A DNA stretch of 64,000 bases from Bacteroidota bacterium (GCA_040386935.1 JAZKEQ010000013.1:2399-66398), one strand, 5' to 3'; positions 1-32,161 are shown, counted from the first letter of the stretch. The notes: generated by a model not told the origin, from the sequence alone. Numbers and translations are program-made.

Positions 1-162
1 TGGGTAGATAAGGAAGGTAACAAAAGAACCACCATGCGTATTCGCGCATTACAGTTTCAAGTGGTAAGCTCTCCATCAACCAACAATACTGATGCAAACG
101 GACACAACCCCGACAAGTCTACTCACTCCATACATGAAGAAGATTCGGGATTGCCATTTTAA
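1..162 (+). CDS. ssb: single-stranded DNA-binding protein, 3' fragment (start lies upstream of the window)
   Basis: Frame 1 is open from base 1 to TAA at 160-162. Translation WVDKEGNKRTTMRIRALQFQ...HEEDSGLPF ends in the acidic tail plus LPF terminus typical of bacterial SSB. It is missing from the ORF track because it has no start in the window. Confidence 0.55.
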   Translation, partial: WVDKEGNKRTTMRIRALQFQVVSSPSTNNTDANGHNPDKSTHSIHEEDSGLPF

Positions 163-8445: not shown

Positions 8446-10061
8446 AATCTTGCAACAAGCGGAATCAATCTTCCTCTCCCAAATGCCTTGGCGGTTACAC
8501 GAAGAATTGGCGGTGCCTGATAGCGTTTGAATTCATTGCGATTAACCAATTGCAATACACGGGTAACAGTGGCCTCATCAAACCCTCTATTGACAATCGC
8601 AACTTTATCTTCGACACCTTCTATATAGCATTTCAAAATTGCATCCAAAACATCATAAGGTGGTAAACTGTCGCTGTCCTTTTGGTCGGGGCGCAACTCA
8701 GCGCTTGGCGCTTTATTGATGATATCAGAAGGTATTATTTCTTTTGAACGGTTGATGTAATTTGCCAGTGCATACACATCGGTTTTATAAACATCGCCAA
8801 TTACACTTAAGCTGCCGCACATATCGCCATACAAAGTACTGTAGCCAACAGCCATCTCACTTTTATTACTTGTATTAAGCAGGATATGGCCTTTTTTATT
8901 GCTGTAAGCCATTAACAAAACGCCTCTGATTCTTGCTTGTAAATTTTCTTCGGTTACATCTGCAGGTAGGTTATTGAACAATGGTTGCAAGGCTGAATCA
9001 AAACTGTCATAAGCATCTTTGATTGGCACTATAAAGTATGGATTGCCGAGATTTTCGGACAAGGCCTGCGCATCTGTTACACTACCGCCACTGCTGTATT
9101 GAGATGGCATTAATACTGCTGTAACATTTTCGGCACCTATGGCTTCGGATGCCAATGCTTGTACAACTGCTGAATCGATACCACCGGATGAACCCAGCAC
9201 AACTTTTGAAAAATTCATTTTTGTGAAATAATCTTTCAAACCAAATATAAGGGCCTTGTGTAATTGTTCAATGCGGGGCACTGCAACAGATGTTGAAGCC
9301 TGTGTTGTTGAAGTATCGATGATTACAAATTCTTCTTCGAAAGTGGCACATTGGTAAACCACTTTTCCATCGCGATTGATATACAATGAGCTGCCATCAA
9401 AAATCAAATCGGTGTGAGCACCAACCTGATTGACATACACCATGGGCAATTTAAAATTTGCAGACTGATGACTGAGTATATCGAGACGCTGTTCCAACTT
9501 ACCTTCATTGAATGGCGATGCTGAAATATTGATGATGAGTTCCGGTTGTAAAGCACTCAGATTCTTTAAAGGGTCTTCTGTATAACTGAAAAAATCCATC
9601 TCATCCCACAAGTCTTCGCAAATGGTTACTGCTGTTTTAACCCCACCTATTTCAATGGTTTTGAACACATCATTGCTTTGAAAATAGCGAGCTTCGCTGA
9701 ACACATCATAAGTGGGTAATAGTGTTTTATAAATGGTATCGCGATGTTCTCCATTTGTTAGAATACATGCTGCATTGTACAAGCGCCTTCCTTTAGGATG
9801 CGCATTGGTAACAGGGCAACCCACTATGGCAGTAATCCCTTGCGTAGCTGCCGCAATCTTTTGTAAAGCAGTTTCACATTTAGCTATGAAATGGGGGTAA
9901 TCCAATAAATCATCAGGAGGATAACCGCATACTGCCAGTTCACTAAAAACAATAAGGCCCGCACCTTCTGTACGAGCCTTATCAATGCTTTTGATTATTT
10001 TAAGGGTGTTACCTTCGAAATCTCCTATCGTATAGTTTAATTGAGCAAGAGCGATTTTCAT
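8442..10061 (-). CDS. nadE: glutamine-dependent NAD+ synthetase
   Basis: 539 aa. N-terminal nitrilase/CN-hydrolase domain (MKIALAQLN...FSELAVCGYPP, AVTICEDLW) plus a C-terminal NAD synthetase domain (VLGSSGGIDSAV, P-loop-like SGGxDS). Confidence 0.9.
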   Translation of the reverse strand: MKIALAQLNYTIGDFEGNTLKIIKSIDKARTEGAGLIVFSELAVCGYPPDDLLDYPHFIAKCETALQKIAAATQGITAIVGCPVTNAHPKGRRLYNAACILTNGEHRDTIYKTLLPTYDVFSEARYFQSNDVFKTIEIGGVKTAVTICEDLWDEMDFFSYTEDPLKNLSALQPELIINISASPFNEGKLEQRLDILSHQSANFKLPMVYVNQVGAHTDLIFDGSSLYINRDGKVVYQCATFEEEFVIIDTSTTQASTSVAVPRIEQLHKALIFGLKDYFTKMNFSKVVLGSSGGIDSAVVQALASEAIGAENVTAVLMPSQYSSGGSVTDAQALSENLGNPYFIVPIKDAYDSFDSALQPLFNNLPADVTEENLQARIRGVLLMAYSNKKGHILLNTSNKSEMAVGYSTLYGDMCGSLSVIGDVYKTDVYALANYINRSKEIIPSDIINKAPSAELRPDQKDSDSLPPYDVLDAILKCYIEGVEDKVAIVNRGFDEATVTRVLQLVNRNEFKRYQAPPILRVTAKAFGRGRLIPLVARF

Positions 10062-17949: not shown

Positions 17950-18519
17950 ATGACTGATTTAGAGCGTTGCATCCAAAGCTATTTCGGAATTCAACCCGAG
18001 GATTTAAAAACCATTGGCCAATTATTTCAAAAAAGTACACTAAAGAAAGGTGATTATTATATAAAAAGTGGTCACTCTTGCGACAAATTGAGTTTCATAC
18101 AATCAGGTTTAATCAGAATATACACTACTGCCAATGATAAAGAAGTAACCCAATGGATTTCTACGCCTGGCTATTTTGTTACAGATCTGGCCGGACTGCT
18201 GTTTGATTCTCCGGCACGCTGGAACATTCAAGCCATTACTGATGCAGACATTTATACAATTTCTAAAAAAGATTACATTAGAATAGGACAAATCATTCCA
18301 CAGTGGCATGAATTAGAAAAAAGATTTATTGCAAAGTGTTTCACCATTCTTGAAGATAGGATTTTCAGCCATTTATCAATGAGTGCAGAAGAACGCTATG
18401 CTGTATTTTTTGAAACAAACAAAAACCTATTCAATCAGGTACCCCTACAATACATTGCCTCGATGTTGGGAATGACACCTGAAACCTTCAGTAGAATTAG
18501 AAGAAAGCATTTGCAATAA
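17950..18519 (+). CDS. Crp/Fnr family transcriptional regulator
   Basis: 189 aa with a cNMP-binding-like N-terminal barrel (LKKGDYYIKSGHSCDKLSFIQSGLIRIY) and a C-terminal HTH (VPLQYIASMLGMTPETFSRIRRK). Confidence 0.8.
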   Translation: MTDLERCIQSYFGIQPEDLKTIGQLFQKSTLKKGDYYIKSGHSCDKLSFIQSGLIRIYTTANDKEVTQWISTPGYFVTDLAGLLFDSPARWNIQAITDADIYTISKKDYIRIGQIIPQWHELEKRFIAKCFTILEDRIFSHLSMSAEERYAVFFETNKNLFNQVPLQYIASMLGMTPETFSRIRRKHLQ

Positions 18520-19099: not shown

Positions 19100-21229
19100 A
19101 TGAAGTCAACCCTGTTATTTGCCCCTGTGATTGCATTGGCACTTACTGCCTGTAACAATCCCAACAAAACTGTGACCCAAGCCCCTATGAAATACCCTTT
19201 TACTGACACCAGCAATGCAGCCGACACATTCTTCGGCAAAATAATTCCCGACCCTTATCACTGGCTCGAAGATGATCTTTCAGAGAAAACCAAAGCATGG
19301 ATAGATTCTCAGAACAACCTCACCTTTGGCTACCTTTCAAAAATCCCCTACCGCGAACAATTGCGCAAACGCCTCGAAGACATCTGGAACTACGAACGTT
19401 TCTCGGCTCCTTTCAACGAAGGCAAATACACTTACTACTACAAAAATGACGGGCTGCAAAGTCAAAGCGTCTTATACCGTCAGATTGGCTCCGGTACACC
19501 TGAAATATTTCTGGACCCCAATCAGTTTTCACCCGATGGCACCACTTCTTTAGGCGGTATCGACTTTAGCAAGGACGGCAGTTTGGTAGCATATCAAATA
19601 AGCGAAGGTGGCAGCGACTGGCGCAAGGTTATCGTATTGAATGCTGAGACTAAAGCAGTAATAGAAGATACATTGATAGATGTAAAATTCAGTGGCCTTT
19701 CATGGAGAGGTAATGAAGGTTTTTATTACAGCAGCTACGACAAACCAAAGGGCAGTGAGCTGTCTGCCAAAACAGATCAACACAAATTGTATTTCCACAA
19801 ATTGGGCGAACCGCAGAGCAAAGATCAGTTGATATTCGGTGGCAGCAAAACACCCAGACGCTATGTTGGTGGTGGCGTTTCTGAAGATGAAAATTTCCTC
19901 ATTATTTCTGCCTCTACATCTACCAACGGCAATGAATTATACATACAAGACTTAAGACAAAAAAACGGCCCTATTCGCAACATTGTGAATCACTGTGACA
20001 ACAACAACGACATTGTACATACAGAAGGTAATACATTGTTCATCATCACAGATTTCAAAGCACCGAATATGCGTTTGGTAAAAGTAGATGTTGCCAATCC
20101 GGCTCCCGACCAATGGACCGATGTGATACCTGAAACTGATATGCCTTTAACCATAAGCACAGGTGGGGGCAAATTATTTGCTTCATATCTAAAAGATGCC
20201 TGCAGTCAATTACTCCAATACAATCTAGAAGGTAAGATGGAGAAAGAAATTGCATTGCCCGGCAAAGGCAGTGCCAGTGGCATTAGTGGCAAATGGGAAG
20301 AAACTACTTTGTATTATACCTATACCAGTTATATTTATCCTTCAACCATTTTTTCATTTAATGTAGGCAGTGGTCAATCAGAATTATACAAAAAATCGGG
20401 TATTAAGTTCGACCCAACAGGTTATGAATCCAAGCAGGTATTTTATACAAGCAAAGACGGCACTAAAATCCCGATGATGATTACCCATAAAAAAGGAATG
20501 AAAATGGATGGCAAGAATCCGATGTTGCTTTATGGCTATGGCGGATTCAATATCAGTTTAACACCTGCATTCAGCACTGCAATGGTGGCGTGGCTCGAAG
20601 CCGGTGGTGTGTATGCAGTTCCCAACATCAGAGGTGGTGGCGAATATGGCAAAGAATGGCACGATGCAGGTATACAAATGAAAAAACAAAATGTATTCAA
20701 TGATTTTACCGCTGCTGCTGAATGGCTGATTAAAGAAAAATACACCTCATCTGACTACCTGGCCATATCAGGCGGATCTAATGGCGGTTTATTAGTAGGC
20801 GCTTGCATGACTCAAAGACCAGAATTGTTCAGAGTGGCTTTGCCGGCTGTAGGTGTGCTTGATATGTTGCGTTACCATAAATTCACTGCTGGTGCCGGAT
20901 GGTCGTACGACTACGGAACAGCTGAAGATTCTGTTGAAATGTTGAATTACCTGCTCACCTATTCCCCATATCACAATTTACATAAAGGCAAAAACTATCC
21001 GGCTACCATGGTAACCACAGGCGACCATGACGACCGCGTAGTGCCTGCTCATTCATTTAAGTTTGCGGCAAGACTGCAATCTGTGAACGATGGCCCTAAC
21101 CCTACCCTTATCCGTATTGAAACAAAAGCTGGCCATGGTGCAGGGAAACCAACGGCTATGGTGATAGAAGAATATGCCGACCGGTTTGCATTTGCCCTAT
21201 ACAATATGGGTATAATGGACATTAAATAG
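19100..21229 (+). CDS. prolyl oligopeptidase (S9A serine peptidase), lipoprotein/secreted
   Basis: ORF starts at TTG 19091, with an ATG at 19100 (MKSTLLFAPVIALALTAC). DPYHWLED at the N-terminus, catalytic GGSNGGLL, and DDRV..AHS.KF at the C-terminus. Confidence 0.9.
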   Translation: MKSTLLFAPVIALALTACNNPNKTVTQAPMKYPFTDTSNAADTFFGKIIPDPYHWLEDDLSEKTKAWIDSQNNLTFGYLSKIPYREQLRKRLEDIWNYERFSAPFNEGKYTYYYKNDGLQSQSVLYRQIGSGTPEIFLDPNQFSPDGTTSLGGIDFSKDGSLVAYQISEGGSDWRKVIVLNAETKAVIEDTLIDVKFSGLSWRGNEGFYYSSYDKPKGSELSAKTDQHKLYFHKLGEPQSKDQLIFGGSKTPRRYVGGGVSEDENFLIISASTSTNGNELYIQDLRQKNGPIRNIVNHCDNNNDIVHTEGNTLFIITDFKAPNMRLVKVDVANPAPDQWTDVIPETDMPLTISTGGGKLFASYLKDACSQLLQYNLEGKMEKEIALPGKGSASGISGKWEETTLYYTYTSYIYPSTIFSFNVGSGQSELYKKSGIKFDPTGYESKQVFYTSKDGTKIPMMITHKKGMKMDGKNPMLLYGYGGFNISLTPAFSTAMVAWLEAGGVYAVPNIRGGGEYGKEWHDAGIQMKKQNVFNDFTAAAEWLIKEKYTSSDYLAISGGSNGGLLVGACMTQRPELFRVALPAVGVLDMLRYHKFTAGAGWSYDYGTAEDSVEMLNYLLTYSPYHNLHKGKNYPATMVTTGDHDDRVVPAHSFKFAARLQSVNDGPNPTLIRIETKAGHGAGKPTAMVIEEYADRFAFALYNMGIMDIK

Positions 21230-21500
21230 GCTGATTATTTTCATTAGGAAAATACTTTTATCAAATTGCGAAATTTAATCACTTTTATCGTGAAGCGATA
21301 AATAGGGAATAATCCGAATGGTGTGCAATAGTTGCTGATTCACCTTGCTTTTATTCCTGTTCGGCTCCGGGTGCTTATTTCAGATTGAAATGTAGTACCA
21401 TATTTGAAAAATTATGTGCACAGAGCAATGCTTCAGTATTGTTTCACTTGGTGCATCGCTGTGAAGTTTCTTACAATTAACATTTTAAAACCTTACTACG

Positions 21501-22094
21501 ATGAAACATGCAATATTTACCCTGCTATTGTTACTTTGCCTTAATAGTGTGCAAGGTACTACTTGGACAATCACCAATGTGGCCAATACTTTTTCACCGG
21601 CTACACTTACCATTCAATTCGGTGACTCCGTTATATTTTCTATCTCATCTTCTCACGATGCTTTAGAAATCAGTAATGAAACATGGAATACCAATGGCAC
21701 CACCCCGATTTCGGGCGGATTTGAAGTGCCCTTTGGTGGCGGCATTTTAGCACCCTCCGATTTAGGTGTCGGCACTCATTATTACATTTGTACTGCCCAT
21801 GCAGCAATGGAAATGAAAGGAATTATTATTGTGGAATCTGCAACGGGTATAGAACCGATGGTACCACTCCCCTATTTTATTTTATATCCAAATCCATGTA
21901 CCAATTTTATCACCATCGATTATGGATCTGAAAACTGTCATTATCTCATCATTAATTTTATGGGTCAACCGGTTAAATCTGCATTATTGACAAAAGGCGT
22001 CAATCTCATAGAATTATCTAACCTACCATCCGGTTTTTATTTTGTAAGCGTAATCGAACGCCCATCATACAGATATACACTTGTTAAACACTAA
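21501..22094 (+). CDS. cupredoxin (plastocyanin/azurin-like blue copper protein) with T9SS type-A C-terminal sorting domain
   Basis: 197 aa with a signal peptide. Type-1 Cu ligand pattern SSHD ... YYICTAHAAMEM (C-x2-H-x4-M). C-terminal LYPNPCTNFITIDY...LPSGFYFVSV is a T9SS CTD signature. Confidence 0.7.
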   Translation: MKHAIFTLLLLLCLNSVQGTTWTITNVANTFSPATLTIQFGDSVIFSISSSHDALEISNETWNTNGTTPISGGFEVPFGGGILAPSDLGVGTHYYICTAHAAMEMKGIIIVESATGIEPMVPLPYFILYPNPCTNFITIDYGSENCHYLIINFMGQPVKSALLTKGVNLIELSNLPSGFYFVSVIERPSYRYTLVKH

Positions 22095-22124
22095 TCCTTC
22101 AATAACCAACTAAATTTAACCATT

Positions 22125-22280
22125 ATGAACAGATTGCTTTATACCCTGGCCATTATTCTCCTTGTACTATGGGCCATTGGCTACTTTACTACCAATATTG
22201 GCAGTATTATCCATATACTATTAGTAATTGCAATAATCGCCATTCTTCTCCGTGTAATTAAGGGAAGAGATCCTCTCTAA
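22125..22280 (+). CDS. lmo0937-family small membrane protein (51 aa; below the ORF-track size cut-off)
   Basis: ATG at 22125, TAA at 22278-22280. Product MNRLLYTLAIILLVLWAIGYFTTNIGSIIHILLVIAIIAILLRVIKGRDPL is nearly co-linear with the product of 24218..24370. Confidence 0.7.
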   Translation: MNRLLYTLAIILLVLWAIGYFTTNIGSIIHILLVIAIIAILLRVIKGRDPL

Positions 22281-22319
22281 ATACTTACAAATTAATGTTT
22301 AACCTAAATAACAAACATC

Positions 22320-22607
22320 ATGAAAAAATCAATTTTAATCATCCTTGTACTCCTGGCATTTGCAATCGTTCCAATGAAAAGCTATGCAAGTAAAGCACAA
22401 CATGAAAGTGCTAATGAATCTTTAAATGTTTCTCACATTGAAGATAAAAAAGGAGAAAACGCTAAAACAGAAGTCATAATACATGAAGATGAAACAGCGC
22501 CTGATAAAAGCGAAATTAAAGAGCAATCAAATGCTGTAGGTGGTGGCGTATATATTTCGGCCGGCAGTCTTATTCTCATCATTGTTTTATTAATTATTTT
22601 TCTATAA
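22320..22607 (+). CDS. hypothetical secreted protein with C-terminal GGGVYISAG plus hydrophobic tail (paralog of 25540..25833)
   Basis: 95 aa with signal MKKSILIILVLLAFAIVPMKSYA, a charged low-complexity middle, and an end of [22 protein letters not shown]. Confidence 0.6.
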   Translation: MKKSILIILVLLAFAIVPMKSYASKAQHESANESLNVSHIEDKKGENAKTEVIIHEDETAPDKSEIKEQSNAVGGGVYISAGSLILIIVLLIIFL

Positions 22608-22650
22608 TTTTCAAGTAGAAACGTTATCCGTACATCTTTACTGAATTTAA

Positions 22651-22689
22651 AGAAAGCTATAGCAACAAAACTATAGCTTTCTTCATTTT
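22651..22689 (+). terminator. rho-independent terminator
   Basis: Perfect 12-bp stem agaaagctatag / ctatagctttct with an 8-nt loop, followed by tcatttt. Lies 44 nt after the stop at 22607. Confidence 0.65.
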
Positions 22690-22935
22690 GGAGACTCTAA
22701 AATTATAAGTTGAAAGATTGTCGACCGAAAAAAAATAATTGGTAAATTGTGCAATCGGATTCCGTAAAATACTATTTTTAATATTAAATAATTTATCGCC
22801 CTTTTTTTCATATTTTAAATTTGTTTAGTAAAACCTTATATTTGATAATTCACCTTTGCTCAAAAAATAAAAATATGAATTTTATATTTCAAGGTTTAAT
22901 TTTTAGCACAAGCATCAATTAACTGCAATCACAGA

Positions 22936-23541
22936 GTGCTTAAACACTTACCCATATTGTTAATTTATTCAAGATTGTTAATTGGCTGCCTGTTGTTATA
23001 CCTCAGTTTTACCGATATAGCGCATTACCCGACCATTGCCATCCTACTTTTTACCCTTGGTTTACTTACCGATATTTTTGATGGCATCATAGCCCGGAGA
23101 CTCGGCATATCGACTCAGCGTTTGCGTAGACTCGATTCGAGCATTGATCAGATTTTTTTTATATGTGTGGCGATTGCAACGTATATCCAATGTCCTGTTT
23201 TCTTTCAATCACATCTCACGGAAATAATCCTGCTTATTTCTTTTGAGGCTCTTACCTATTTGATTTGTTTCATTAAATTTAAAAAGGAAGTGGCCACCCA
23301 TGCCATATCATCCAAGATATGGACCTTGATTTTATTTGCCTCAATGATTCAGATTATGGGAACCTGTGATTCAGGTTGGCTTTTTCAAATTGCTATTTAT
23401 TTAGGATTGCTTACACGACTCGAGATTATGGCAATTATAATCACCATCAGAACCTGGACAAATGATGTACCGAGCATTTATCATGCTGTACAATTAAGAA
23501 AAGGGCTACCCATCAAGCGACACAAACTATTTAACGGGTAA
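22936..23541 (+). CDS. CDP-alcohol phosphatidyltransferase family protein
   Basis: 201 aa with a GTG start and multiple TM helices. Motif DIFDGIIARRLGISTQRLRRLDSSIDQ approximates D-x2-DG-x2-AR...D-x3-D. Confidence 0.65.
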   Translation: MLKHLPILLIYSRLLIGCLLLYLSFTDIAHYPTIAILLFTLGLLTDIFDGIIARRLGISTQRLRRLDSSIDQIFFICVAIATYIQCPVFFQSHLTEIILLISFEALTYLICFIKFKKEVATHAISSKIWTLILFASMIQIMGTCDSGWLFQIAIYLGLLTRLEIMAIIITIRTWTNDVPSIYHAVQLRKGLPIKRHKLFNG

Positions 23542-23579
23542 CACAGACAAGTTACATTTTTTCATTACATCAACTTTCA

Positions 23580-23747
23580 TCAAGCTTTGCACTTTTTCCT
23601 GAATTCATTGGGGCTGATACCCTCTGCCTGTTTAAATAATTTACTGAAATAAGATTCGTCTTCAAAGTCGAGCTTGTAGGCTATTTCCTTTACACTCTGG
23701 TCGGATGGATACAGCAATTTATTGGCTGCATGATTTCTACTTTTACA
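23580..23747 (-). pseudogene. remnant of an AraC-family regulator gene (only the last HTH retained)
   Basis: Minus-strand translation CKSRNHAANKLLYPSDQSVKEIAYKLDFEDESYFSKLFKQAEGISPNEFRKKCKA* (stop at 23580-23582) matches the AraC C-terminal HTH signature. It is preceded immediately by an in-frame TAA and has no start codon. Confidence 0.55.
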
Positions 23748-23845
23748 TTACAAAAGTAGGATAAGAAACCGGCCAGTGTATATGATAAAATTCATTTTTT
23801 ATCACAAAATTGTTCTTATAAAATGGGGTAAAGCTACTTCCAACT

Positions 23846-23909
23846 GTGAATTATGTAAGCATTCTAGTGAAATGTGTAAGACTTAAAGGTGTTGCATTAT
23901 TCATCTTTG
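23846..23909 (+). promoter_or_regulatory. copy A of the conserved 64-bp tripartite promoter/operator element
   Basis: GTGAATTATGTAAG-N7-GTGAAATGTGTAAG-N23-TCTTTG. The same layout and spacing occur at 25425 and 30374. It ends 25 nt before the ATG at 23934. Confidence 0.6.
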
Positions 23910-23933
23910 CATAGTTAATAAACAATCAAAATC

Positions 23934-24149
23934 ATGGAAAATAATCAACAAAGCAGCAGCGAGCCATTCAGCATTACAGGCGACTGGGACATCCAATCAA
24001 TTGCATTAAAAGAAAAGTATCCGCAACTGACGGATGCCGACTTGTTATTTGAAGCGGGTAAAGAAGACGAATTAATTGGCAGAATCGAATCACGTTTAAA
24101 TATAAATCGCAGCGAAATCATTAATATTTTAACTACGCCTGCGCTGTAA
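23934..24149 (+). CDS. CsbD-like general stress protein
   Basis: 71 aa. The pattern GDWD......LKEKYPQLTDADLLFEAGKEDELIGRI fits the CsbD/YjbJ-like small stress proteins. Confidence 0.5.
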   Translation: MENNQQSSSEPFSITGDWDIQSIALKEKYPQLTDADLLFEAGKEDELIGRIESRLNINRSEIINILTTPAL

Positions 24150-24217
24150 AACCATCCACCATGGCAAAATCAACTCAATATCCATTTCCATATTATATAG
24201 AATACAAAAAAAAACAC

Positions 24218-24370
24218 ATGAATAATCTACTTTATACCATTGCTATCATCCTTTTAATTATTTGGGCGATTGGCTACTTTTCATACAACACCGGCAATAT
24301 CATTCACATTTTATTAGTCATTGCTGTTATCGCTATACTTTTACGTGTAATCAGAGGCAGAGACATTTAG
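24218..24370 (+). CDS. lmo0937-family small membrane protein (50 aa)
   Basis: ORF 24161..24370. The internal ATG at 24218 gives MNNLLYTIAIILLIIWAIGYFSYNTGNIIHILLVIAVIAILLRVIRGRDI, co-linear with the 22125..22280 product. Confidence 0.65.
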   Translation: MNNLLYTIAIILLIIWAIGYFSYNTGNIIHILLVIAVIAILLRVIRGRDI

Positions 24371-24374
24371 TATT

Positions 24375-24641
24375 ATGAGTAAAAATAACAATACAGCTAA
24401 AGTCATTGGTGCTTTGGCTGTAGGCTTACTTGCCGGATCGGCCTTAGGAATGCTGTTTGCGCCTGATAAAGGTGCAATGACACGCAGAAATATTTCTGAT
24501 GGCTTAAAAGGTATGGCTCAGCGTATCAAAGACCCATTCAATAGCGCAAAAATACAATTGGCTATCGAGCAAAAGTTGCAGAAACAATGGGAAAAGAACC
24601 ATGACATTGTTTCTGGCAATCAAACAGAGCATAATTACTAA
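24375..24641 (+). CDS. YtxH domain-containing protein
   Basis: 88 aa. The N-terminus KVIGALAVGLLAGSALGMLFAPDKGAMTRR is the YtxH signature (TM helix plus LFAP..G...R). Confidence 0.7.
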   Translation: MSKNNNTAKVIGALAVGLLAGSALGMLFAPDKGAMTRRNISDGLKGMAQRIKDPFNSAKIQLAIEQKLQKQWEKNHDIVSGNQTEHNY

Positions 24642-24683
24642 CGTACAATTTATCCAGTTAAAATACTTAATGCACAACTACAA

Positions 24684-25028
24684 ATGAATGAACCAGGATC
24701 AACAGAAGAAATTACCGAGAGTTTAAAAACTTATATTAACAACTATTATGAGTTAATCAAACTACAAGCGACTGAAAGGGCATCTGTCATTGGCAGTGCA
24801 TTAATTAGCGGATTTTTGATTGTAATGACCGTATTTCTCATCATTTTATTCTGCAGTCTTGGTGCAGGTTTTTACCTGTCTCAATGTTTTAACAATAATT
24901 ATATTGGATTTGTTATCGTTGCCGGGTTTTACCTGATATTGTCATTAATCATCATTTTGAATAAGAAAAAAATGATCGACACCCCCATGAGAGACAGAAT
25001 CATCAGAAAAATGCTGCAAGAGGATTAA
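24684..25028 (+). CDS. two-TM membrane protein, Holin-X/DUF1469-like ('phage holin family' annotation type)
   Basis: 114 aa with an amphipathic N-terminus (YYELIKLQATERAS) followed by two long TM helices. This type commonly travels with YtxH genes. It is not evidence of a prophage. Confidence 0.45.
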   Translation: MNEPGSTEEITESLKTYINNYYELIKLQATERASVIGSALISGFLIVMTVFLIILFCSLGAGFYLSQCFNNNYIGFVIVAGFYLILSLIIILNKKKMIDTPMRDRIIRKMLQED

Positions 25029-25050
25029 ATCTATTTAATGAGCCTATTCT

Positions 25051-25428
25051 ATGGATAATACAGAAATCAAAGACTATACAGATTTAATGATAAGCATTAA
25101 ACTGCTGAAAGAAAAAAAATTCAGACAGGAAACTGAACTCAAGTCTATTTTTAAAAACTTCGCCAATGCCCATGATCCTATTTCAATTTTAAAAGGATCC
25201 ATTAAGTCAATTTCGTCAAATAGAGAAATTCAAGGTGATTTGTTAAAAGTCACCATCAACACAGGTGTTCATTACTTGATGGGTAAAATTTTAAATAGAA
25301 ATCTGCCAATTAAAGACTTTCTGAGTTCCGTAATGGTGGAAAAAATATCGACAACACTTACGAATATCAATATCACAGGGCTTATTGCCAAAGGCATAGC
25401 CTTTATTAATCCAAAAAAGAATCAGTGA
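25051..25428 (+). CDS. hypothetical protein
   Basis: 125-aa ORF in an operon-like array (22-nt gap from the previous gene). No motif recognised. Confidence 0.45.
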   Translation: MDNTEIKDYTDLMISIKLLKEKKFRQETELKSIFKNFANAHDPISILKGSIKSISSNREIQGDLLKVTINTGVHYLMGKILNRNLPIKDFLSSVMVEKISTTLTNINITGLIAKGIAFINPKKNQ

Positions 25429-25488
25429 ATTATGTAATGAATTCATTGAAATGTATAATCATTCCAATAGCCATTACACCCACCTTTG
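25425..25488 (+). promoter_or_regulatory. copy B of the conserved 64-bp tripartite promoter/operator element
   Basis: GTGAATTATGTAAT-N7-TTGAAATGTATAAT-N23-CCTTTG. The GTGAA overlaps the TGA stop of the upstream gene (25426-25428). Confidence 0.6.
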
Positions 25489-25539
25489 TATCCGAATCAT
25501 TTGAATATCCAAATGAACAACAACCAAATCAAATATAAA

Positions 25540-25833
25540 ATGAAAAAATCAATCATCACAGCCTTTATTGTTATTGTAAGCATGTTTGCAATTCCGGTAC
25601 AATCATTTGCAGGTAATGCAGTAAATTCAAAAAGTTCAAGCACAATGAACAGCGAAGAATTTTCCGGTTCAGAGCAATCAACTTCTGACAAATCTGTAAG
25701 AACTAGCCCAACAACTCAGTCAGAAAAATCAAAGAAAGAAAACACAACAGCCAACCAGAGCATAGGCGGTGGTGTTTATATTTCAGCCGGTGCTATCATA
25801 TTGATTATCGTACTGATTATCATCCTTCTTTAA
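25540..25833 (+). CDS. hypothetical secreted protein with C-terminal GGGVYISAG plus hydrophobic tail (paralog of 22320..22607)
   Basis: ORF 25486..25833 starts at a TTG inside the regulatory element. The ATG at 25540 gives [24 protein letters not shown]..., an S/T/E-rich middle, and an end of [22 protein letters not shown]. Confidence 0.6.
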
Positions 25834-25837
25834 AACT

Positions 25838-26128
25838 ATGGAAAACTCAAATAACACAATGAAACTAATCGGAGCCCTCATTTTAGGGGGGGTGACCGGT
25901 GCTGCTCTGGGTATTTTGTTTGCACCTGACAAAGGCAGCAATACAAGAAGTAAATTAATGACCGGTGCTAAAGACATGATTGGTGATATAAGCAATAAAT
26001 TAAAGGAAGAAGCCAGAATATTAAGAGGTAAGGCTGAAGAACTGGAAGCACTTGCGGAAGAAAAAATTGCGGTCTTAAAACAAAAAGCAGATTCATTATT
26101 AAATAAAGAACCTGAACAAAGCACTTAA
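25838..26128 (+). CDS. YtxH domain-containing protein
   Basis: 96 aa with [32 protein letters not shown] followed by a coiled-coil-like tail. Second YtxH gene in the island. Confidence 0.7.
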
Positions 26129-26160
26129 ACTTCTTAACGCTTTTTAATCTGTATACATAA

Positions 26161-26186
26161 AATGCGAACAATCTTTTGTTCGCATT
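26161..26186 (+). terminator. perfect hairpin (terminator/attenuator-like) between the YtxH gene and the AI-2E transporter gene
   Basis: aatgcgaacaa-tctt-ttgttcgcatt is an 11-bp perfect stem with a 4-nt loop. The trailing U-tract is weak (atcattt). It lies inside the ORF-track N-terminal extension of 26162..27304. Confidence 0.4.
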
Positions 26187-26209
26187 ATCATTTAAAAAGC
26201 ATCCCATTC

Positions 26210-27304
26210 ATGGAACCAGTTAAAATTCCTTTTTACGCCAAAGCATCGCTGATATTTATCGGCATGTTTGCATTTATCAGCATGCTGTATATTGCTCAGA
26301 AAATCATTCTCCCTATTATTTTTTCTGTCATCATTGCTATTGTCATGAGCCCATTGGTTGATTTTCTTGTCAGAAAAAAATTCAATCGCGTATTCGCTAT
26401 TTTCACGGCACTGATTATAGTGGGATGTGTTACATTTAGTTGTATTTTCACCATATCTACACAATTAAGTATTTTCGGACAATCATTCCCTCAATTCATT
26501 GATAAACTCTATCTGTCACTTGACAACACTGTTCTATGGATAGCTGACAATTCATCTATTAGCGCTCAAAAGTGCAATGAGTTCATTGCGTATTCAAAAA
26601 ATGAGATACTCAATCTTGGTAAATCATCAATAGGTGCCACCATTTCATCCATAGGAGACATGATCATTATTCTGGTATTAATCCCTGTTTATGTGTTCAT
26701 GTTTTTATTTTACAGACCCTTACTTCTCGACTTTATTCGCAGCGTATTTGGGGAAGTCCATCAGGTAGAAGTGAATGCCGTTTTGAATTCTACCAAAAGA
26801 ATTGTGCAACAATATTTGATTGCTTTGCTGTTTGAAGCCATTATAGTTGCCATCCTGAATACGAGTGGCCTATTGATTATAGGCATTGATCATGCAATCA
26901 TTCTCGGCATCATTGGGGCATTATTAAATATTATTCCGTACATCGGTGGCATAATAGCCGTATCTTTACCCATGATAGTAGCGTATACCACCAAATCCTC
27001 CCCCAGTTTTGCGCTACTGGTTTTACTGCTCTATGGGGTCATTCAGTTTATTGACAACAATTACATTATCCCAAAACTAGTCGCTTCAAAAGTCAAAATA
27101 AATGCATTGGTATCTATTGTTGTCGTAATTGCAGGTAGTGCCTTATGGGGCATACCCGGCATGTTTCTTTCCATACCATTGACAGCCATTATCAAAGTGA
27201 TATTTGACCATATCGAACAACTTAAGCCATGGGGATTATTGCTCGGAGACACATTGCCAAAAATTACCATTTTTAAAATTAAGTTAAATTACAAAAAATC
27301 ATGA
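26210..27304 (+). CDS. AI-2E family transporter (PerM/UPF0118 permease)
   Basis: I prefer the ATG at 26210 (MEPVKIPFYAKASLIFIGMF...), downstream of the hairpin. Polytopic, with LLNIIPYIGGIIA, typical of the family. Confidence 0.75.
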   Translation: MEPVKIPFYAKASLIFIGMFAFISMLYIAQKIILPIIFSVIIAIVMSPLVDFLVRKKFNRVFAIFTALIIVGCVTFSCIFTISTQLSIFGQSFPQFIDKLYLSLDNTVLWIADNSSISAQKCNEFIAYSKNEILNLGKSSIGATISSIGDMIIILVLIPVYVFMFLFYRPLLLDFIRSVFGEVHQVEVNAVLNSTKRIVQQYLIALLFEAIIVAILNTSGLLIIGIDHAIILGIIGALLNIIPYIGGIIAVSLPMIVAYTTKSSPSFALLVLLLYGVIQFIDNNYIIPKLVASKVKINALVSIVVVIAGSALWGIPGMFLSIPLTAIIKVIFDHIEQLKPWGLLLGDTLPKITIFKIKLNYKKS

Positions 27305-29304
27305 AAACTCTTGAAAGAGAAGCTTCCCAATACGCCAGGAGTTTGATTGAAGCCAGTCTTGACCCCTTAATCACCATCAATAATGAAGGAAAGATTACGG
27401 ATATGAATGAAGCTCTCGCCAATATCACCGGAATATCTCGAGAAAACTTAACCGGTACAGATTTTTTCGATTATTTCACCGACCCTCAGAAAGCGCGTGA
27501 AGTATACCAAGAGGTATTCGCTAAAGGTTCAGTTGCCGACTTACCACTTACACTGCGCCATAAAGATGGCAAACTAACAGATGTTAAATTCAATGGCTCG
27601 GTTTATAAAGATGATAAAGGCATTGTGTTGGGAATTGTAATTGTGGCAAGAGATGTAACTGAACAAAAACGCATTGCAACAGAATTAACCGAAGCGAAGA
27701 TATTTGCTGAAAAAGCTACAAAAATTGCGGAAGATGCACAAAGCAAAGCTGAAATGGCCACTGAAATTGCTGTAAATGCTGTTAAAGCAAAACAACAGTT
27801 TTTGTCGAACATGAGTCATGAAATCAGAACACCGATGAATGCCATCATAGGCTTTACCAAAGTGGTACTCAGAACAGAATTAACAGACAAACAAAATGAA
27901 TACCTTACCGCAATTAAAATAAGCGGAGATGCACTGATTGTATTAATCAACGATATATTGGATTTAGCAAAAGTAGATGCAGGAAAGATGACCTTTGAAA
28001 AAACTCCTTTCAAATTGGCCTCTTCTATTTCAGCCATGTTGCATTTATTTGAAACCAAAATCATGGAAAAAAACCTGATTTTAATCAAAGAGTATGACAA
28101 AAATATTCCTGAGGTGCTGATAGGCGACCCTGTGCGATTACACCAAATCATTAATAATCTTGTTAGCAATGCAGTAAAATTTACCATTAAAGGATCCATT
28201 ACTGTAAGTGTCACCATGATTGAAGAATCTGAGGACCAGGTAACCATAGAATTTGCCATAAGCGATACCGGCATTGGTATTGTAGACAGTAAAATTGACA
28301 ATATTTTTGAAAACTTCCAGCAGGCTACCAGCGGCACTTCGCGATTATATGGCGGTACCGGATTGGGATTGGCCATTGTCAAACAATTGGTAGAACATCA
28401 AGGTGGCAGTATCAGAGTTAAAAGTTATATCGATAAAGGGTCAACCTTTAGCTTTACTTTAAATTTCCAGAAAACAGTTGAAGCAACGGAAATTGAGTCA
28501 GGATTGGTAGAGCTCGATAAAGAAGTTATCGACTTGAACATATTGGTAGTAGAAGATATTGCACTGAATCAATTATTGATGAAAACACTTTTAGAGGACT
28601 TCGGTTTCAAATGTGATATCGCTGAAAACGGTAAAATAGCCATAGAAAAACTCCTGCTAAAAACTTATGACATGATTCTAATGGACCTGCAAATGCCTGA
28701 AATGAATGGATTTGAAGCCACAGAATACATCAGAAAAAAACTCAATCTCAATATTCCTATCATAGCTTTAACTGCAGATGTCACAACTGTTGACCTTGCG
28801 AAATGCAATGCTGTGGGTATGAATGATTATATCGCTAAGCCTGTTGATGAGCGATTACTGCACCATAAAATTACCGGTATTATTAAGAAAAATATTTTGA
28901 ATAACAGACGCCATGAGCATCCCCCAGTAATAATAAACTCAATTAAATGCACCAATCTCGACAGACTTAGACAGATTACAAAATCAAAAACTGAACTGAT
29001 GATGCAAATGATTGATTTGTATTTGACTCAAACCAGGTATTTGGTTCCTAAGATGAAAGAAAGTTCCAATAACAAGGACTGGCATGCGCTTGAAGCAACC
29101 ATACACAAAATGATTCCTTCATTTTCAATTATGGGTTTTGATACTGAATACGAGACCATTGCTAAAAAAATACAAGAGAATGCGGTCTTACAAACACATA
29201 TTGACAAGATACCTGCAATGGTTACACAAATAGAACAAATTTGTTTACAGGCCTGTATAGAACTTGAAATGGAATATGTCACTTTAAAAAACAACAACCA
29301 ATGA
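27301..29304 (+). CDS. PAS-domain hybrid sensor histidine kinase/response regulator with C-terminal HPt-like domain
   Basis: 667 aa with an N-terminal PAS, a coiled coil, the H-box FLSNMSHEIRTPMNAIIGF, ATPase boxes (DTGIGI, GGTGLGLAIV), a receiver (DMILMDLQMPEMNG ... ALTA) and a terminal HPt-like ATIHKMIPSFSIMGF. The start overlaps the transporter stop (ATGA). Confidence 0.9.
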   Translation: MKTLEREASQYARSLIEASLDPLITINNEGKITDMNEALANITGISRENLTGTDFFDYFTDPQKAREVYQEVFAKGSVADLPLTLRHKDGKLTDVKFNGSVYKDDKGIVLGIVIVARDVTEQKRIATELTEAKIFAEKATKIAEDAQSKAEMATEIAVNAVKAKQQFLSNMSHEIRTPMNAIIGFTKVVLRTELTDKQNEYLTAIKISGDALIVLINDILDLAKVDAGKMTFEKTPFKLASSISAMLHLFETKIMEKNLILIKEYDKNIPEVLIGDPVRLHQIINNLVSNAVKFTIKGSITVSVTMIEESEDQVTIEFAISDTGIGIVDSKIDNIFENFQQATSGTSRLYGGTGLGLAIVKQLVEHQGGSIRVKSYIDKGSTFSFTLNFQKTVEATEIESGLVELDKEVIDLNILVVEDIALNQLLMKTLLEDFGFKCDIAENGKIAIEKLLLKTYDMILMDLQMPEMNGFEATEYIRKKLNLNIPIIALTADVTTVDLAKCNAVGMNDYIAKPVDERLLHHKITGIIKKNILNNRRHEHPPVIINSIKCTNLDRLRQITKSKTELMMQMIDLYLTQTRYLVPKMKESSNNKDWHALEATIHKMIPSFSIMGFDTEYETIAKKIQENAVLQTHIDKIPAMVTQIEQICLQACIELEMEYVTLKNNNQ

Positions 29305-29732
29305 CTTTAAAAAAAGATATGATATTTCTGGTAGATGATGATGCGCTATTTCTTAAATCACTCGAAATAGAATTTCTATTGGATGAAGGTTATAATGTTA
29401 AAACCTTTGCAACAGGAGAACTTTGCATTGATCATTTGTTTATCAATCCTGAAATAATTATCCTGGATTATCATTTGGATGATATTGACAAAACAGCCAT
29501 GAATGGTATTCAGACTTTGGATGAAATCAAAAAAATCAATTCTGACATTTCAGTTGTAATGCTTTCGGCTCAAGACAAGATCAATGTAGCAATAGATTGT
29601 ATGCATCATGGGGCAACAGACTATGTTGTAAAAAGTGAAACCACTTTTATACGATTAAAAACCATCATCAAGGTCATTAATGACCGAAAAAAACTGGAAA
29701 AAGAAGTCAATTGGTATATGGAAAGATTGTAA
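29301..29732 (+). CDS. single-domain response regulator (receiver only)
   Basis: 143 aa with LVDDDALF, IILDYHLDD, VVMLSAQ and DYVVKS. No output domain. The start overlaps the kinase stop (ATGA). Confidence 0.85.
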   Translation: MTLKKDMIFLVDDDALFLKSLEIEFLLDEGYNVKTFATGELCIDHLFINPEIIILDYHLDDIDKTAMNGIQTLDEIKKINSDISVVMLSAQDKINVAIDCMHHGATDYVVKSETTFIRLKTIIKVINDRKKLEKEVNWYMERL

Positions 29733-29837
29733 TCCCCCTCATAGTACCATATAATAAAAAAACCAATCGCGGCTAATTCACCTACATTTACACCAATCTA
29801 GTTCATTTAACAGTATATGATACTCTACATTAAGTAT

Positions 29838-30377
29838 ATGGTGAGTCTTCGTTGTAAAATGATGGTAAAAGATGAGCTAAAAAAAATGGGCTTGCATTTT
29901 ATTATTGTTGATTTGGGAGTAGTCGAAATTCTTGAAGACTTATCAATCATAGAACATGATTTACTCAAAGTTAACCTGCTCAAATCCGGGCTGGAATTGC
30001 TGGATGACAAGAAAAGCATATTGATAGAAAAAATCAAAAATGTGATAATTGAGATTATCCATTACTCAGATGAAATTCCAAAAATGAATTATTCGGATTA
30101 TATCAGTGAAAAACTGAATTATGATTATACTTATTTATCAAATGTGTTTTCTGAAGTAAAAGGCATTACCATACAGCAATTTATCATCATCAATAAAATT
30201 GAAAGAGTAAAAGAGTTATTGCTATATGATGAAATGAATATGACTGAAATTGCTGATAAAATGCACTACAGCAGTGTGGCCCACCTCTCTAATCAATTTA
30301 AAAAAACCACAGGTCTCTCTCCTACTTTTTATAAACAAATGAAAGTAAAGCGACTGACCAATCTCGAAAACATGTGA
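29838..30377 (+). CDS. small AraC-family transcriptional regulator
   Basis: ORF 29817..30377. I prefer the ATG at 29838 (MVSLRCKMMVKDELKKMGL...). The C-terminal double HTH includes ...YLSNVFSEVKGITIQQF... and MTEIADKMHYSSVAHLSNQFKKTTGLSPTFY. Confidence 0.8.
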   Translation: MVSLRCKMMVKDELKKMGLHFIIVDLGVVEILEDLSIIEHDLLKVNLLKSGLELLDDKKSILIEKIKNVIIEIIHYSDEIPKMNYSDYISEKLNYDYTYLSNVFSEVKGITIQQFIIINKIERVKELLLYDEMNMTEIADKMHYSSVAHLSNQFKKTTGLSPTFYKQMKVKRLTNLENM

Positions 30378-30437
30378 AATATGTAATACTCATACTTATT
30401 CATGTAATATTCAACCACTCGAATTGATTCATCTTTG
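30374..30437 (+). promoter_or_regulatory. copy C of the conserved 64-bp tripartite promoter/operator element
   Basis: GTGAAATATGTAAT-N7-CTTATTCATGTAAT-N23-TCTTTG. The GTGAA overlaps the TGA stop of the AraC gene (30375-30377). Confidence 0.55.
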
Positions 30438-30523
30438 CCCCTGTAAGTTTGATTGTTTCGCAATACCAAATACGAATTTGGTTAATAGCATTTTCTCAAA
30501 AGAACTTACTCAATCAATATACA

Positions 30524-31279
30524 ATGAGAAATCCTCTATCACAAAAAATCGCAGCTTCAGCCTTCACCTTTATGGTTGTCTGTTCTGCTTCTGCCTTTAC
30601 TACACCTGCCGTTAAGCATCAGCCACGTTTTAAAACAAATATGACTGAGTCTGATTCAAACAATCAGCCTAATTCTAAACTGAAACACTTTGAATTCGGA
30701 TTGCGCTACATGCCTACTTTTACAAATCTTGAGTTACAAAACAGAGATGGCAATGTCATTGAAAGTTCAGGTAGTTTTAGCAATGGTTTCGGTGCCATGT
30801 TGGGATTCAACATTACCAATCACATAGGCATACAAGCTGAAGCCAGTTTTTATTCTGCTTCACAGAAGTACACTGAAGGCGGATATGACCAGAATGTAAA
30901 AATAAAGTATATTAACATTCCCTTGTTTTTCTCACTAAACACGAATAAAACTTCCCGCTTCAATTTAAATCTTGTTGCTGGACCTCAATTTGGTGTTAAT
31001 GCAGGGTCTAAAATTTCATCAGGAGGGTCAGGCAGTAAAGACACACTTATGGCAGTCGTTGCATTAAAACGTGCAGACTTCGGTTTTGCGTTTGGTGGTG
31101 GTGCAGAAATTATACTGAATACTGACGAAACATTGCGTTTGGATATCGGTTTAAGAGCCTATCGTGGATTTTTAAACATCAATAACGAAACTCAAACTGA
31201 AAACGGCACATACAATGTAATGGTTAAATCAACCCGTAAAACAAACTCAGCTTACATCGGAATTTCATTCCTTTTTTAA
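30524..31279 (+). CDS. outer-membrane beta-barrel protein (porin-family, OMP_b-brl_2-like)
   Basis: ORF 30449..31279. The ATG at 30524 gives MRNPLSQKIAASAFTFMVVCSASAF (signal peptide). Beta-strand alternation, ending in AYIGISFLF. Confidence 0.6.
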   Translation: MRNPLSQKIAASAFTFMVVCSASAFTTPAVKHQPRFKTNMTESDSNNQPNSKLKHFEFGLRYMPTFTNLELQNRDGNVIESSGSFSNGFGAMLGFNITNHIGIQAEASFYSASQKYTEGGYDQNVKIKYINIPLFFSLNTNKTSRFNLNLVAGPQFGVNAGSKISSGGSGSKDTLMAVVALKRADFGFAFGGGAEIILNTDETLRLDIGLRAYRGFLNINNETQTENGTYNVMVKSTRKTNSAYIGISFLF

Positions 31280-31301
31280 AAAAATATTAGTGCTTAAATT
31301 C

Positions 31302-31333
31302 AAAAGTGCCACGAGAAATTGTGGTGCTTTTTT
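31302..31333. terminator. bidirectional rho-independent terminator between convergent genes
   Basis: aaaagtgccac-gagaaatt-gtggtgctttttt forms a stem with two G-U pairs. An A-run precedes it and a T-run follows it. Confidence 0.55.
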
Positions 31334-31336
31334 ATT

Positions 31337-32161
31337 TTATCTCGAAAAAATTTCCGAGAAGAGTCGTTGTATTTTAGCAAAATCATAATGCTTATCGCCA
31401 TAGCTTTCTACCCATTGCATGCCCTTACTGGCATTAGATACAAATACTTCATCGGCCATTCGCAATTCCTCTTCGGTAATCGCTGTTTCATGGATGTTTT
31501 TATTCAGCATCTTGCATTGAGTAATGATATGCTGGCGCATCACGCCATCTAAACAATACTCGCTAAGTGATGGTGTAAGAATATCATCATCCACCATTAA
31601 AAAAATATTGGCGTTATACACTTCACACACCCGTTGGTATTCATTGAACAATACCACTGTATCACAATGTTGTTCGTTAGCTGCAATACCTGCCATTACA
31701 TATTGAATAGCCGAAAGCGGTTTAAAGAAACTGATAAAATTCGATGGTTTTAATATCTGTCCGTACGACCCCATGGCAAGCCCTTTATCATTGAGTTTAT
31801 AACTGCCGGTATCTTCCATAATATCAATAATGAAATTCCCTTTATTGGATGCAGGTGCATAAAATCCTGTAGAGTCGCGGTAAAATGTAATGCGGCAACG
31901 GGCGTTTACAAATCCATTTTTAAGACACAAAAGATTGAGTTGCTCTTCAAAGTACAACTGGGTCCATTTTTCGTTTAAATTAATTTTTAAAAGCTTAGAT
32001 GCTCTTTGAATGCGGTTGTAATGCAAACTGAATAGCTGTGGTAATTTGCCAATGATTTTGATGCTTTCAAAAAAGCCATCTCCGTATTTGTAAATACGGC
32101 TGTGCGATGCAAATATCTTGTCGTCAGCATCGGTTAAAACCCCATTGAAACTAATCAACAT
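31337..32161 (-). CDS. aminotransferase class IV (aminodeoxychorismate lyase / branched-chain or D-amino-acid aminotransferase family)
   Basis: 274 aa with FxYGDGFFE near the N-terminus, and a size and overall pattern typical of PLP fold-type IV enzymes. Confidence 0.7.
   Translation of the reverse strand: MLISFNGVLTDADDKIFASHSRIYKYGDGFFESIKIIGKLPQLFSLHYNRIQRASKLLKINLNEKWTQLYFEEQLNLLCLKNGFVNARCRITFYRDSTGFYAPASNKGNFIIDIMEDTGSYKLNDKGLAMGSYGQILKPSNFISFFKPLSAIQYVMAGIAANEQHCDTVVLFNEYQRVCEVYNANIFLMVDDDILTPSLSEYCLDGVMRQHIITQCKMLNKNIHETAITEEELRMADEVFVSNASKGMQWVESYGDKHYDFAKIQRLFSEIFSR

Follow-up and report, generated by a model that had tools for sequence, protein, structure and literature searches.

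A 64,000-nucleotide stretch of DNA from a Bacteroidota bacterium (GCA_040386935.1, JAZKEQ010000013.1:2399-66398; 37.9% G+C), referred to below as the window, carries three copies of a tripartite cis-element in front of genes for small stress-related and envelope proteins, with a gene for a 179-aa AraC/XylS-family regulator among them. The three elements are genuine copies of a promoter signature that is conserved across Bacteroidota. A sequence-only reading of the window had placed them at 23846-23909, 25425-25488, and 30374-30437, and both the letters and the identical internal distances of the three 64-bp stretches are exactly as described there. All three lie on the + strand, each upstream of a confirmed ATG (23934, 25540, and 30524, respectively). 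Counted from the first base of the distal site, copy A spans 23841..23909 and comprises a full distal site at 23841-23859 (CAACTGTGAATTATGTAAG), a proximal site ending in TGTAAG at 23875-23880, and a box resembling the Bacteroidota -7 promoter element (CATCTTTG) at 23902-23909. Copy B (25420..25488) has its distal site at 25420-25438, a TATAAT/TGTAA-like proximal block at 25454-25459, and the box CACCTTTG at 25481-25488, and copy C (30369..30437) has its distal site at 30369-30387, the proximal sequence ATGTAAT at 30402-30408, and the box CATCTTTG at 30430-30437. The TGA within GTGAA serves, as had been noticed, as the stop codon of the preceding open reading frame (ORF) in copy B (ORF 25051..25428) and copy C (ORF 29817..30377), and the distal site of copy C thus overlaps the final codons and the TGA stop of the AraC gene.

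Genes and elements of the window

Copy A precedes unit A (23934..25428, +), whose ORFs, assigned with Pfam, encode a CsbD-like protein (23934-24149), a DUF5670 protein (24218-24370), a YtxH protein (24375-24641), a holin-X/YqjE-like membrane protein (24684-25028), and a 125-aa protein (25051-25428); the last three genes in this order, with a site upstream, were also found in two loci from other genomes (L056 and L080). Unit B starts (25540..26128, +; ORFs and Pfam) with genes for a secreted protein with a GGGVYISAG membrane tail (25540-25833) and a second YtxH protein (25838-26128). Joined by overlaps or short gaps, there follow on the same strand genes for an AI-2E family transporter (26207..27304; Pfam E=1.6e-50), whose stop overlaps the kinase start, a cytoplasmic hybrid histidine kinase with the domain order PAS-HisKA-HATPase-REC (27301..29304; Pfam, with NCBIfam alignments to BarA and ArcB), a translationally coupled receiver-only response regulator of 143 aa (29301..29732; Pfam), and the 179-aa AraC/XylS-family regulator (29838..30377; Pfam HTH_18 E=2.4e-15, HTH_AraC E=6.7e-13). 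The C-terminus of the kinase appears ArcB/BarA-like and probably contains an Hpt domain. Copy C is followed by unit C, a gene for an outer-membrane beta-barrel protein (30524..31279, +; Pfam OMP_b-brl_2) that ends before an intrinsic terminator at 31302-31331.

A hairpin with a perfect 11-bp stem (26160-26186; AATGCGAACAA-TCTT-TTGTTCGCATT) separates the second YtxH gene from the AI-2E gene. Its T-run is on the minus strand only, with none on the + strand, and it could attenuate or stabilize the copy-B transcript. Unit B possibly reads through this hairpin into the AI-2E, kinase, receiver, and AraC genes.

The AraC gene had been taken for the only one in the island to encode a DNA-binding protein, which is not strictly so. 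A 45-aa ORF upstream of copy A (23580-23717, -) encodes just the second helix-turn-helix of an AraC-family protein (…SVKEIAYKLDFEDESYFSKLFKQAEGISPNEFRKK), and because every frame has a stop upstream, it resembles the remnant of a truncated gene, so that the island has more than one AraC-type coding sequence; a Crp-type gene is also nearby (17950-18519). A second DUF5670 gene and a second GGGVYISAG-tail gene, at 22125-22607 (+), lie downstream of a protein with a type IX secretion system (T9SS) tail (21501-22094). No copy of the element accompanies these paralogues, and they appear to lie outside the regulon.

The exact core GTGAANNNTGTAA has four matches in the window, all on the + strand and all within the three elements, against a chance expectation, from 100 dinucleotide shuffles of the window, of 0.19 on average and 2 at most. 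When one mismatch is allowed, 10 matches are found and 7.6 are expected, which is no enrichment, and the signal therefore resides in the exact core and the architecture. A 72-column matrix, built from other genomes only, scores copies A, B, and C at 39.7, 46.3, and 42.9 bits, with the next best window position at 9.5 bits and a shuffled-sequence maximum of 13 bits over ~1.1 million positions. An origin by chance in AT-rich DNA is thus excluded, as the shuffles never reach the observed count and the copies stand far above every other position. The same scan of the window, in which 9.5 bits was the best other score, gave no fourth copy, either in front of the paralogues at 22125-22607 or in front of the AraC gene.

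That the copies arose without function, by local duplication, as a small mobile repeat, or by chance, might be suggested by their crowding into 6.6 kb and by the paralogous genes of the island (two for YtxH, and the DUF5670 and GGGVYISAG-tail genes at 22125-22607). This explanation has next to no probability and is refuted by the shuffles, which stay below the observed count, and by more than 400 sites in distant orders, described below; the dissimilar spacers and flanks of the copies and the lack of a copy at the 22125-22607 paralogues also speak against it. A search of positions 21000-32000 against Rfam at a permissive threshold returned nothing, the spacers vary, and nothing is conserved outside columns -6..+64; an RNA element was accordingly rejected.

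A conserved architecture and its target genes

Two samples extend the element beyond the window. The protein-anchored sample consists of 80 loci chosen on the AraC protein alone (68-80% identity), with ~8 kb on each side of the anchor, and spans Cytophagales, Chitinophagales, Flavobacteriales, Bacteroidales, and others, with Fluviicola, Pontibacter, Ohtaekwangia, and Flavobacterium ardleyense among the carriers. It contains 61 exact distal cores, spread over 41 of the 80 loci, so that the element is conserved at orthologous loci of related genomes. The TGTAA at +29..33 is conserved in these cores (42-60 of 61 per column) although it lay outside the search pattern, as are the box columns A57, C59, T60, T61, T62, and G63. 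The matrix finds 212 sites above the shuffle maximum in the protein-anchored loci and only the three known copies in the window.

The consensus of 194 unique sites from other genomes reads AAtnTGTGAWWtATGTAAC - ttttt - N8 - tTgTGTAAcac - N20 - cAcCTTTGt. Its distal conserved block occupies columns -5..+13 (19 bp) and is non-palindromic, with the starts of TGTGA and (A)TGTAA(C) 9 bp apart; the second TGTAAC follows exactly 21 bp on from the first, and cAcCTTTG lies 21 nt beyond the second. Columns outside the search pattern are 70-99% conserved, the spacers are unconserved, and the aligned sites show no conservation outside -6..+64. The description of the element as two 14-bp direct repeats fits copies A and B of the window but fails as a general rule, for the proximal repeat of the 194 sites keeps T.TGTAAC alone and the GTGAA part is unconserved; judged from this alignment, the complete second GTGAA...TGTAA seen in copies A and B is particular to the window.

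When the distal site is used as the sole anchor, the next TGTAA starts at +21 in 87 of 130 cases and at +20 in 3, with scattered singletons elsewhere, and the start of NTTTG falls at +59 in 67 cases and at +58 in another 15 (82 of the 130 anchors). What is kept is thus the motifs and their spacing while the spacers vary, as the sequence-only reading had proposed. The DNA-anchored sample, a metagenome scan with TGTGAATNATGTAAC-N15-TGTAA, yielded at least 120 contigs (median 4.4 kb). Among the 144 full matches listed, the box, which was not part of the search, is again present (A in 132, T in 142, T in 143, T in 124, and G in 102). The supposition of a small regulon confined to the island is replaced by an architecture that is phylum-wide, with more than 400 sites.

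The same DNA pattern had 2 matches in 2.9 million viral contigs. Both come from IMG/VR, at L201:372-406 (-) on a contig of 299 kb and at L202:1685-1719 (+) on one of 71 kb, and both sites have the typical AAATGTGTGAATCATGTAAC flank followed by TATTTAT in place of CTTTG. These contigs may be mis-binned Bacteroidota DNA or may carry phage genes that use the host regulon.

The sites are concentrated upstream of genes: 90% are intergenic, compared with 22% of random positions, and 61% have the start of an ORF (same strand, at least 70 aa) no more than 150 nt away, compared with 6% of random positions. Box and ATG are separated by a median of 41 nt. Downstream families were counted over 417 listed sites, pooled from the protein-anchored loci and the metagenome matches. 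CsbD is the commonest target (47 sites), and is followed by ice-binding-like proteins with a T9SS sorting tail (35), the AraC regulator itself (18), cupin-like proteins (18), OmpA with a glycine zipper (16), a 149-aa coiled protein (12), DUF5670 (12), a short histidine kinase (11), outer-membrane beta-barrels (11), the GGGVYISAG-tail protein (10), MlaE (7), YtxH (5), the receiver-only regulator (4), and Usp (4), with M48 peptidase, YceI, and AI-2E at fewer sites; in two metagenome loci an AI-2E gene directly follows a site. Target families recur in both samples, and all three target families of the window recur as targets elsewhere. A single signature stands over many unlinked promoters with stress-protective genes, as in a general stress regulon, and 103 of the 120 pattern-found contigs listed have no AraC gene on the contig.

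Ice-binding-like proteins (PF11999) rank second among the targets, with L152:1765-3387 (-) and 34 further sites, and hint that the physiological setting involves cold, freezing, or surface stress.

The AraC-type regulator and its probable partners

The AraC protein has more than 8000 database relatives, the best 120 of which are ~77-83% identical, two near-identical hits aside, and are named as Saprospiraceae, Flavobacteriales, and Bacteroidia. No NCBIfam model is specific to it. In an AlphaFold2 model (predicted local distance difference test score, pLDDT, 80), a small alpha/beta N-terminal domain (~1-56) is connected by a linker helix to a canonical seven-helix AraC DNA-binding domain with two helix-turn-helix units (85-178). 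The best Foldseek matches are the C-terminal domains of AraT and YesN, followed by MarA, SoxS, AdpA, and AraC, and target-normalized template modeling (TM) scores against the DNA-binding domains of MarA, SoxS, AdpA, Rob, and AraC are 0.68-0.82; the TM-score of 0.31 against full-length Rob is due to the much greater length of Rob. Helices H85-93, H97-108, and H147-158 are the best-conserved segments among 98 orthologues and paralogues, and H97-108 and H147-158 would be the recognition helices. The N-terminal domain modeled by itself reached a pLDDT of 60.6, and Foldseek gave it no match at E below 0.1.

Identity of the regulator is 70-80% across Bacteroidota orders, with the N-terminal domain included (invariant M1, V2, S3, R5, C6, and K7). 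Transcription factors are seldom conserved to this degree, and a number of fixed interaction partners may be the reason.

The sites cluster around the AraC gene. Per locus, the kilobase that follows the AraC stop contains 0.72 sites and the kilobase that precedes the gene 0.38, and the density falls to 0.02-0.04 at 6-8 kb upstream, which puts the association ~20-fold above the distal background. The arrangement in which the AraC stop codon lies inside copy C, which had been pointed out for the window, recurs in 30 of 97 AraC genes of other genomes. A site lies upstream of 16 of the 97, with a predicted leader of 40-59 nt in 14 of these, and an AraC orthologue is present on 17 of the 120 pattern-found contigs listed. 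The commonest neighbor families in the 80 loci are the hybrid kinase (27), cupin-like proteins (26), Ig/ice-binding-like proteins (21), and the receiver-only regulator (19), and neither a sigma factor nor another DNA-binding family was found to recur near sites in these 80 neighborhoods. With 0.72 sites per locus in the first kb after its stop, 18 sites directly upstream of AraC genes, and no rival family recurring, the AraC protein is, as had been suggested, the best candidate for the factor that binds the element.

A different factor could in principle occupy these sites, of the OmpR/PhoB type on the TGTRA repeats or of the Crp/Fnr type on TGTGA, with the AraC gene merely co-regulated or co-located. 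Three direct TGTRA units do recall Pho-box-like repeats that replace a -35 element, TGTGA is a CRP half-site, and the Crp-type gene at 17950-18519 lies nearby. The units are 9 and 21 bp apart, however, rather than at the regular 10-11 bp, and no OmpR- or Crp-type gene recurs near the sites, where the linked response regulator is without a DNA-binding domain. A Crp palindrome was looked for and rejected, since TGTGA has no TCACA partner with which to form the palindrome of a Crp dimer. Together with the ~20-fold AraC association, this leaves binding by another factor unlikely.

The regulator is also tied to a signaling module. Kinase orthologues (66-81% identity) adjoin an AraC paralogue in at least 23 of the 80 loci, and in 19 the kinase is followed by a receiver orthologue (~60-65% identity). 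The arrangement usually seen is SITE-AraC-kinase-receiver-SITE, often with a second AraC paralogue before it; the order kinase-receiver-AraC seen in the window was considered as a fixed arrangement and dropped, because it is unconserved and the order elsewhere is usually AraC-kinase-receiver. The link of the AraC gene to a PAS hybrid kinase and a receiver-only regulator makes phosphorelay input probable.

In 19 of the 80 loci (L001, L004, L012, L017, L018, L020, L055, L072, L077, and others, around positions 8000-9400), two or three AraC paralogues lie close together, mostly in tandem and usually with the element between them. One of the tandem paralogues is ~75-80% and the other ~65-70% identical to the window protein, and Fluviicola loci have a further paralogue, of 41-43% identity, just upstream.

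Predicted promoter position, proposed mechanism, and known systems

In Flavobacterium psychrophilum, the sigma-A -7 box TAnnTTTG occupies positions -12..-5 (PMC9723704), and the Bacteroidota consensus combines this box with a weak -33 TTTG (PMC7366714), which is undetectable in F. johnsoniae promoters and poorly conserved in flavobacteria (PMC7366714). The likeness of CAYCTTTG to the -7 box, proposed from the three window copies, generalizes to cAcCTTTG and fits the sigma-A TAnnTTTG. If the published box position applies, transcription would start at column 68, predicted at ~23914 for copy A, ~25493 for copy B, and ~30442 for copy C; at this column purines make up 67% of bases, and G makes up 35% compared with a background of 16%. 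The proximal TGTAAC would then fall at ~-39..-34 (T.TGTAAC at ~-41..-34) and the distal site at ~-73..-55, with the tandem sites centered near -64 and -43 and the proximal site at or over the -33 region, a position predicted from the location of the box. A sigma-70 promoter scan was also run and set aside, as it gave no more matches than in shuffles and its model is unsuited to Bacteroidota.

The same coordinates bear on the possibility of a promoter read by an alternative sigma factor of the extracytoplasmic function (ECF) type, with the proximal TGTAAC as its -35, CTTTG as a -10-like box, the distal block as an activator or UP-like site, and the AraC gene as just another member. GTAAC does resemble the AAC-containing -35 boxes of ECF sigma factors, the -35 of Bacillus subtilis SigX being TGTAAC, and an AraC gene often preceded by the element fits a regulon member as well as a regulator. 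The spacer of 21 nt between TGTAAC and CAnCTTTG nevertheless exceeds the 16-17 nt of ECF geometry, the box matches the sigma-A nAnnTTTG and is unlike a CGT-type ECF -10, the best-conserved block (~-73..-55) lies beyond sigma contacts, and no sigma or anti-sigma gene recurs in the 80 neighborhoods, all of which makes an ECF promoter decidedly unlikely.

In our judgment, the elements are probably activator-dependent sigma-A promoters with tandem AraC sites, which would form a stress-type regulon linked to the hybrid kinase and the receiver-only regulator. The distal 19-bp block AAtnTGTGAWWtATGTAAC (~-73..-55) would be a full site for one AraC molecule, with one of its helix-turn-helix units on TGTGA and the other on TGTAA(C), the two being 9 bp apart. 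The weaker site, exactly 21 bp, or two helical turns, downstream and next to or over the -33 region, would be taken by a second molecule. Jointly the two molecules would bring RNA polymerase to the cAcCTTTG -7 box, and transcription would begin ~5 nt after the G of the box. The promoters would drive genes for small stress and envelope proteins and, in many genomes, also the operon of the regulator itself, which would amount to positive feedback. Input would come from a phosphorelay that ends on the receiver protein, which would in turn act on the AraC N-terminal domain.

Several points weigh against this mechanism. The proximal site is without the TGTGA half, so that the second bound molecule is an assumption; no site lies directly upstream of the window AraC gene, so that feedback would need read-through from copy B; and the subsite spacing of 9 bp is slightly under the ~10-11 bp of MarA-type sites. 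In its first position the -7 box mostly carries C (114 sites, against 22 with T, of 194), where the TAnnTTTG consensus has T, which makes the box a variant of it. Between the proximal TGTAAC and the -7 box, the 194 sites have no conserved -33 TTTG and show only a weak T-rich patch at columns 37-39; as the -33 element is weakly conserved in flavobacteria anyway, its absence is no proof of activator dependence. Lastly, in F. psychrophilum a 540-nt AraC gene precedes a hybrid kinase gene and a 435-nt response regulator gene (PMC9723704). This module is probably orthologous, judging by size and synteny only, and its genes belong to the lowest-expressed 25% in all 32 conditions (PMC9723704). The supplement of that study holds no transcription-start entry for this module.

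The silence of the probable F. psychrophilum module and its neighbors in all 32 conditions could also mean that the AraC protein binds but mainly represses or anti-activates, the element then marking genes that stay silent until release. Many AraC-family proteins are dual regulators. The sites, however, lie at ~-73..-34, where activators are usually positioned, leave the -7 box and +1 free in every case, and are held in the strict helical phasing to the -7 box that polymerase contact requires; a mainly repressive role is very unlikely, and activation is the role to which the position of the sites points.

As an architecture, the element is of a known kind, an AraC-type operator joined to a promoter. 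AraC at araI1-araI2 and XylS at Pm bind asymmetric ~17-20-bp sites in direct orientation with a 21-bp period and activate as class II regulators, with one two-helix-turn-helix domain per site and a weaker promoter-proximal site that abuts or overlaps the -35. The comparison with the classic AraC/XylS tandem, made in the sequence-only reading, thus stands for the asymmetric 19-bp distal site; the second TGTAA at +21 (87 of 130) would fit it, but the TGTGA half of the proximal site is unconserved, and a full second site is present in copies A and B and not in general. The DNA-binding fold is shared with these systems, as would be the 21-bp period, whereas the promoter is here a Bacteroidota sigma-A promoter (nAnnTTTG) rather than one with -35 and -10 boxes, the site sequence is unrelated, and an alpha/beta N-terminal domain of ~56 aa takes the place of the cupin sugar/effector domain, with input probably from a phosphorelay and not from a ligand. 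MarA, SoxS, and Rob are likewise small AraC-family proteins of this fold that act at scattered stress promoters through a degenerate ~20-bp site in fixed position and orientation. Unlike the element, with its two phased sites, and its regulator, with an added N-terminal domain, MarA and SoxS are monomers at a single marbox and have no extra domain, and control would here probably be post-translational, through the two-component module, and not by abundance alone as in MarA, SoxS, and Rob. The closest matches to the DNA-binding domain, in sequence and in structure, are the C-terminal domains of AraT and YesN, and a hybrid two-component system protein matches as well. These response regulators and the hybrid two-component systems of Bacteroides also lead from His-Asp signaling to an AraC-type output, but with receiver and AraC domain in one protein, whereas the 143-aa receiver and the 179-aa AraC protein are separate, and the targets are here stress and envelope genes instead of polysaccharide utilization loci.

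The regulon overlaps in content with those of SigB in Bacillus, RpoS in E. coli, and EcfG/PhyR in Alphaproteobacteria, through CsbD, YtxH (YqjD/ElaB-like), Usp, OsmB-like glycine-zipper/OmpA lipoproteins, and small membrane proteins, and these systems also have one signature over many promoters and an apparent regulator feedback. They use an alternative sigma factor, whereas the element appears to use an activator and the primary sigma factor. To our knowledge, no master stress regulator has been described for Bacteroidota. Tentatively, the element might be the signature of a phylum-wide regulon of the general-stress type, run by a split three-component system and a counterpart of SigB, RpoS, and EcfG. 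The same tentative scheme would comprise the PAS hybrid kinase, the receiver-only regulator, and the small AraC protein, with the receiver controlling the AraC protein by protein-protein contact and the primary sigma factor retained.

A full-text literature search found no description of the regulator, the motif, or the regulon, and a search with TGTAAC returned primer sequences only, so that regulon and regulator are apparently undescribed. Regulation in Bacteroidota outside polysaccharide utilization is poorly mapped, and the element offers a portable predictor of ~40 bits that lists the regulon in any Bacteroidota genome and names its probable regulator and kinase. The 70-80% identity of the regulator across orders suggests a core function, and the ice-binding-like, CsbD, YtxH, and Usp targets point to a role in withstanding cold, osmotic stress, drying, or starvation among Bacteroidota of soil, water, and sediment.

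In F. psychrophilum, a stretch of ~75 kb, THC0290_1129-1210 (PMC9723704, Table S4), contains many genes in the lowest expression quartile in all 32 conditions. Within it lie a UspA gene, the probable AraC-kinase-receiver module, and numerous small hypothetical genes, and it may represent a stress island kept silent until its signal arrives.

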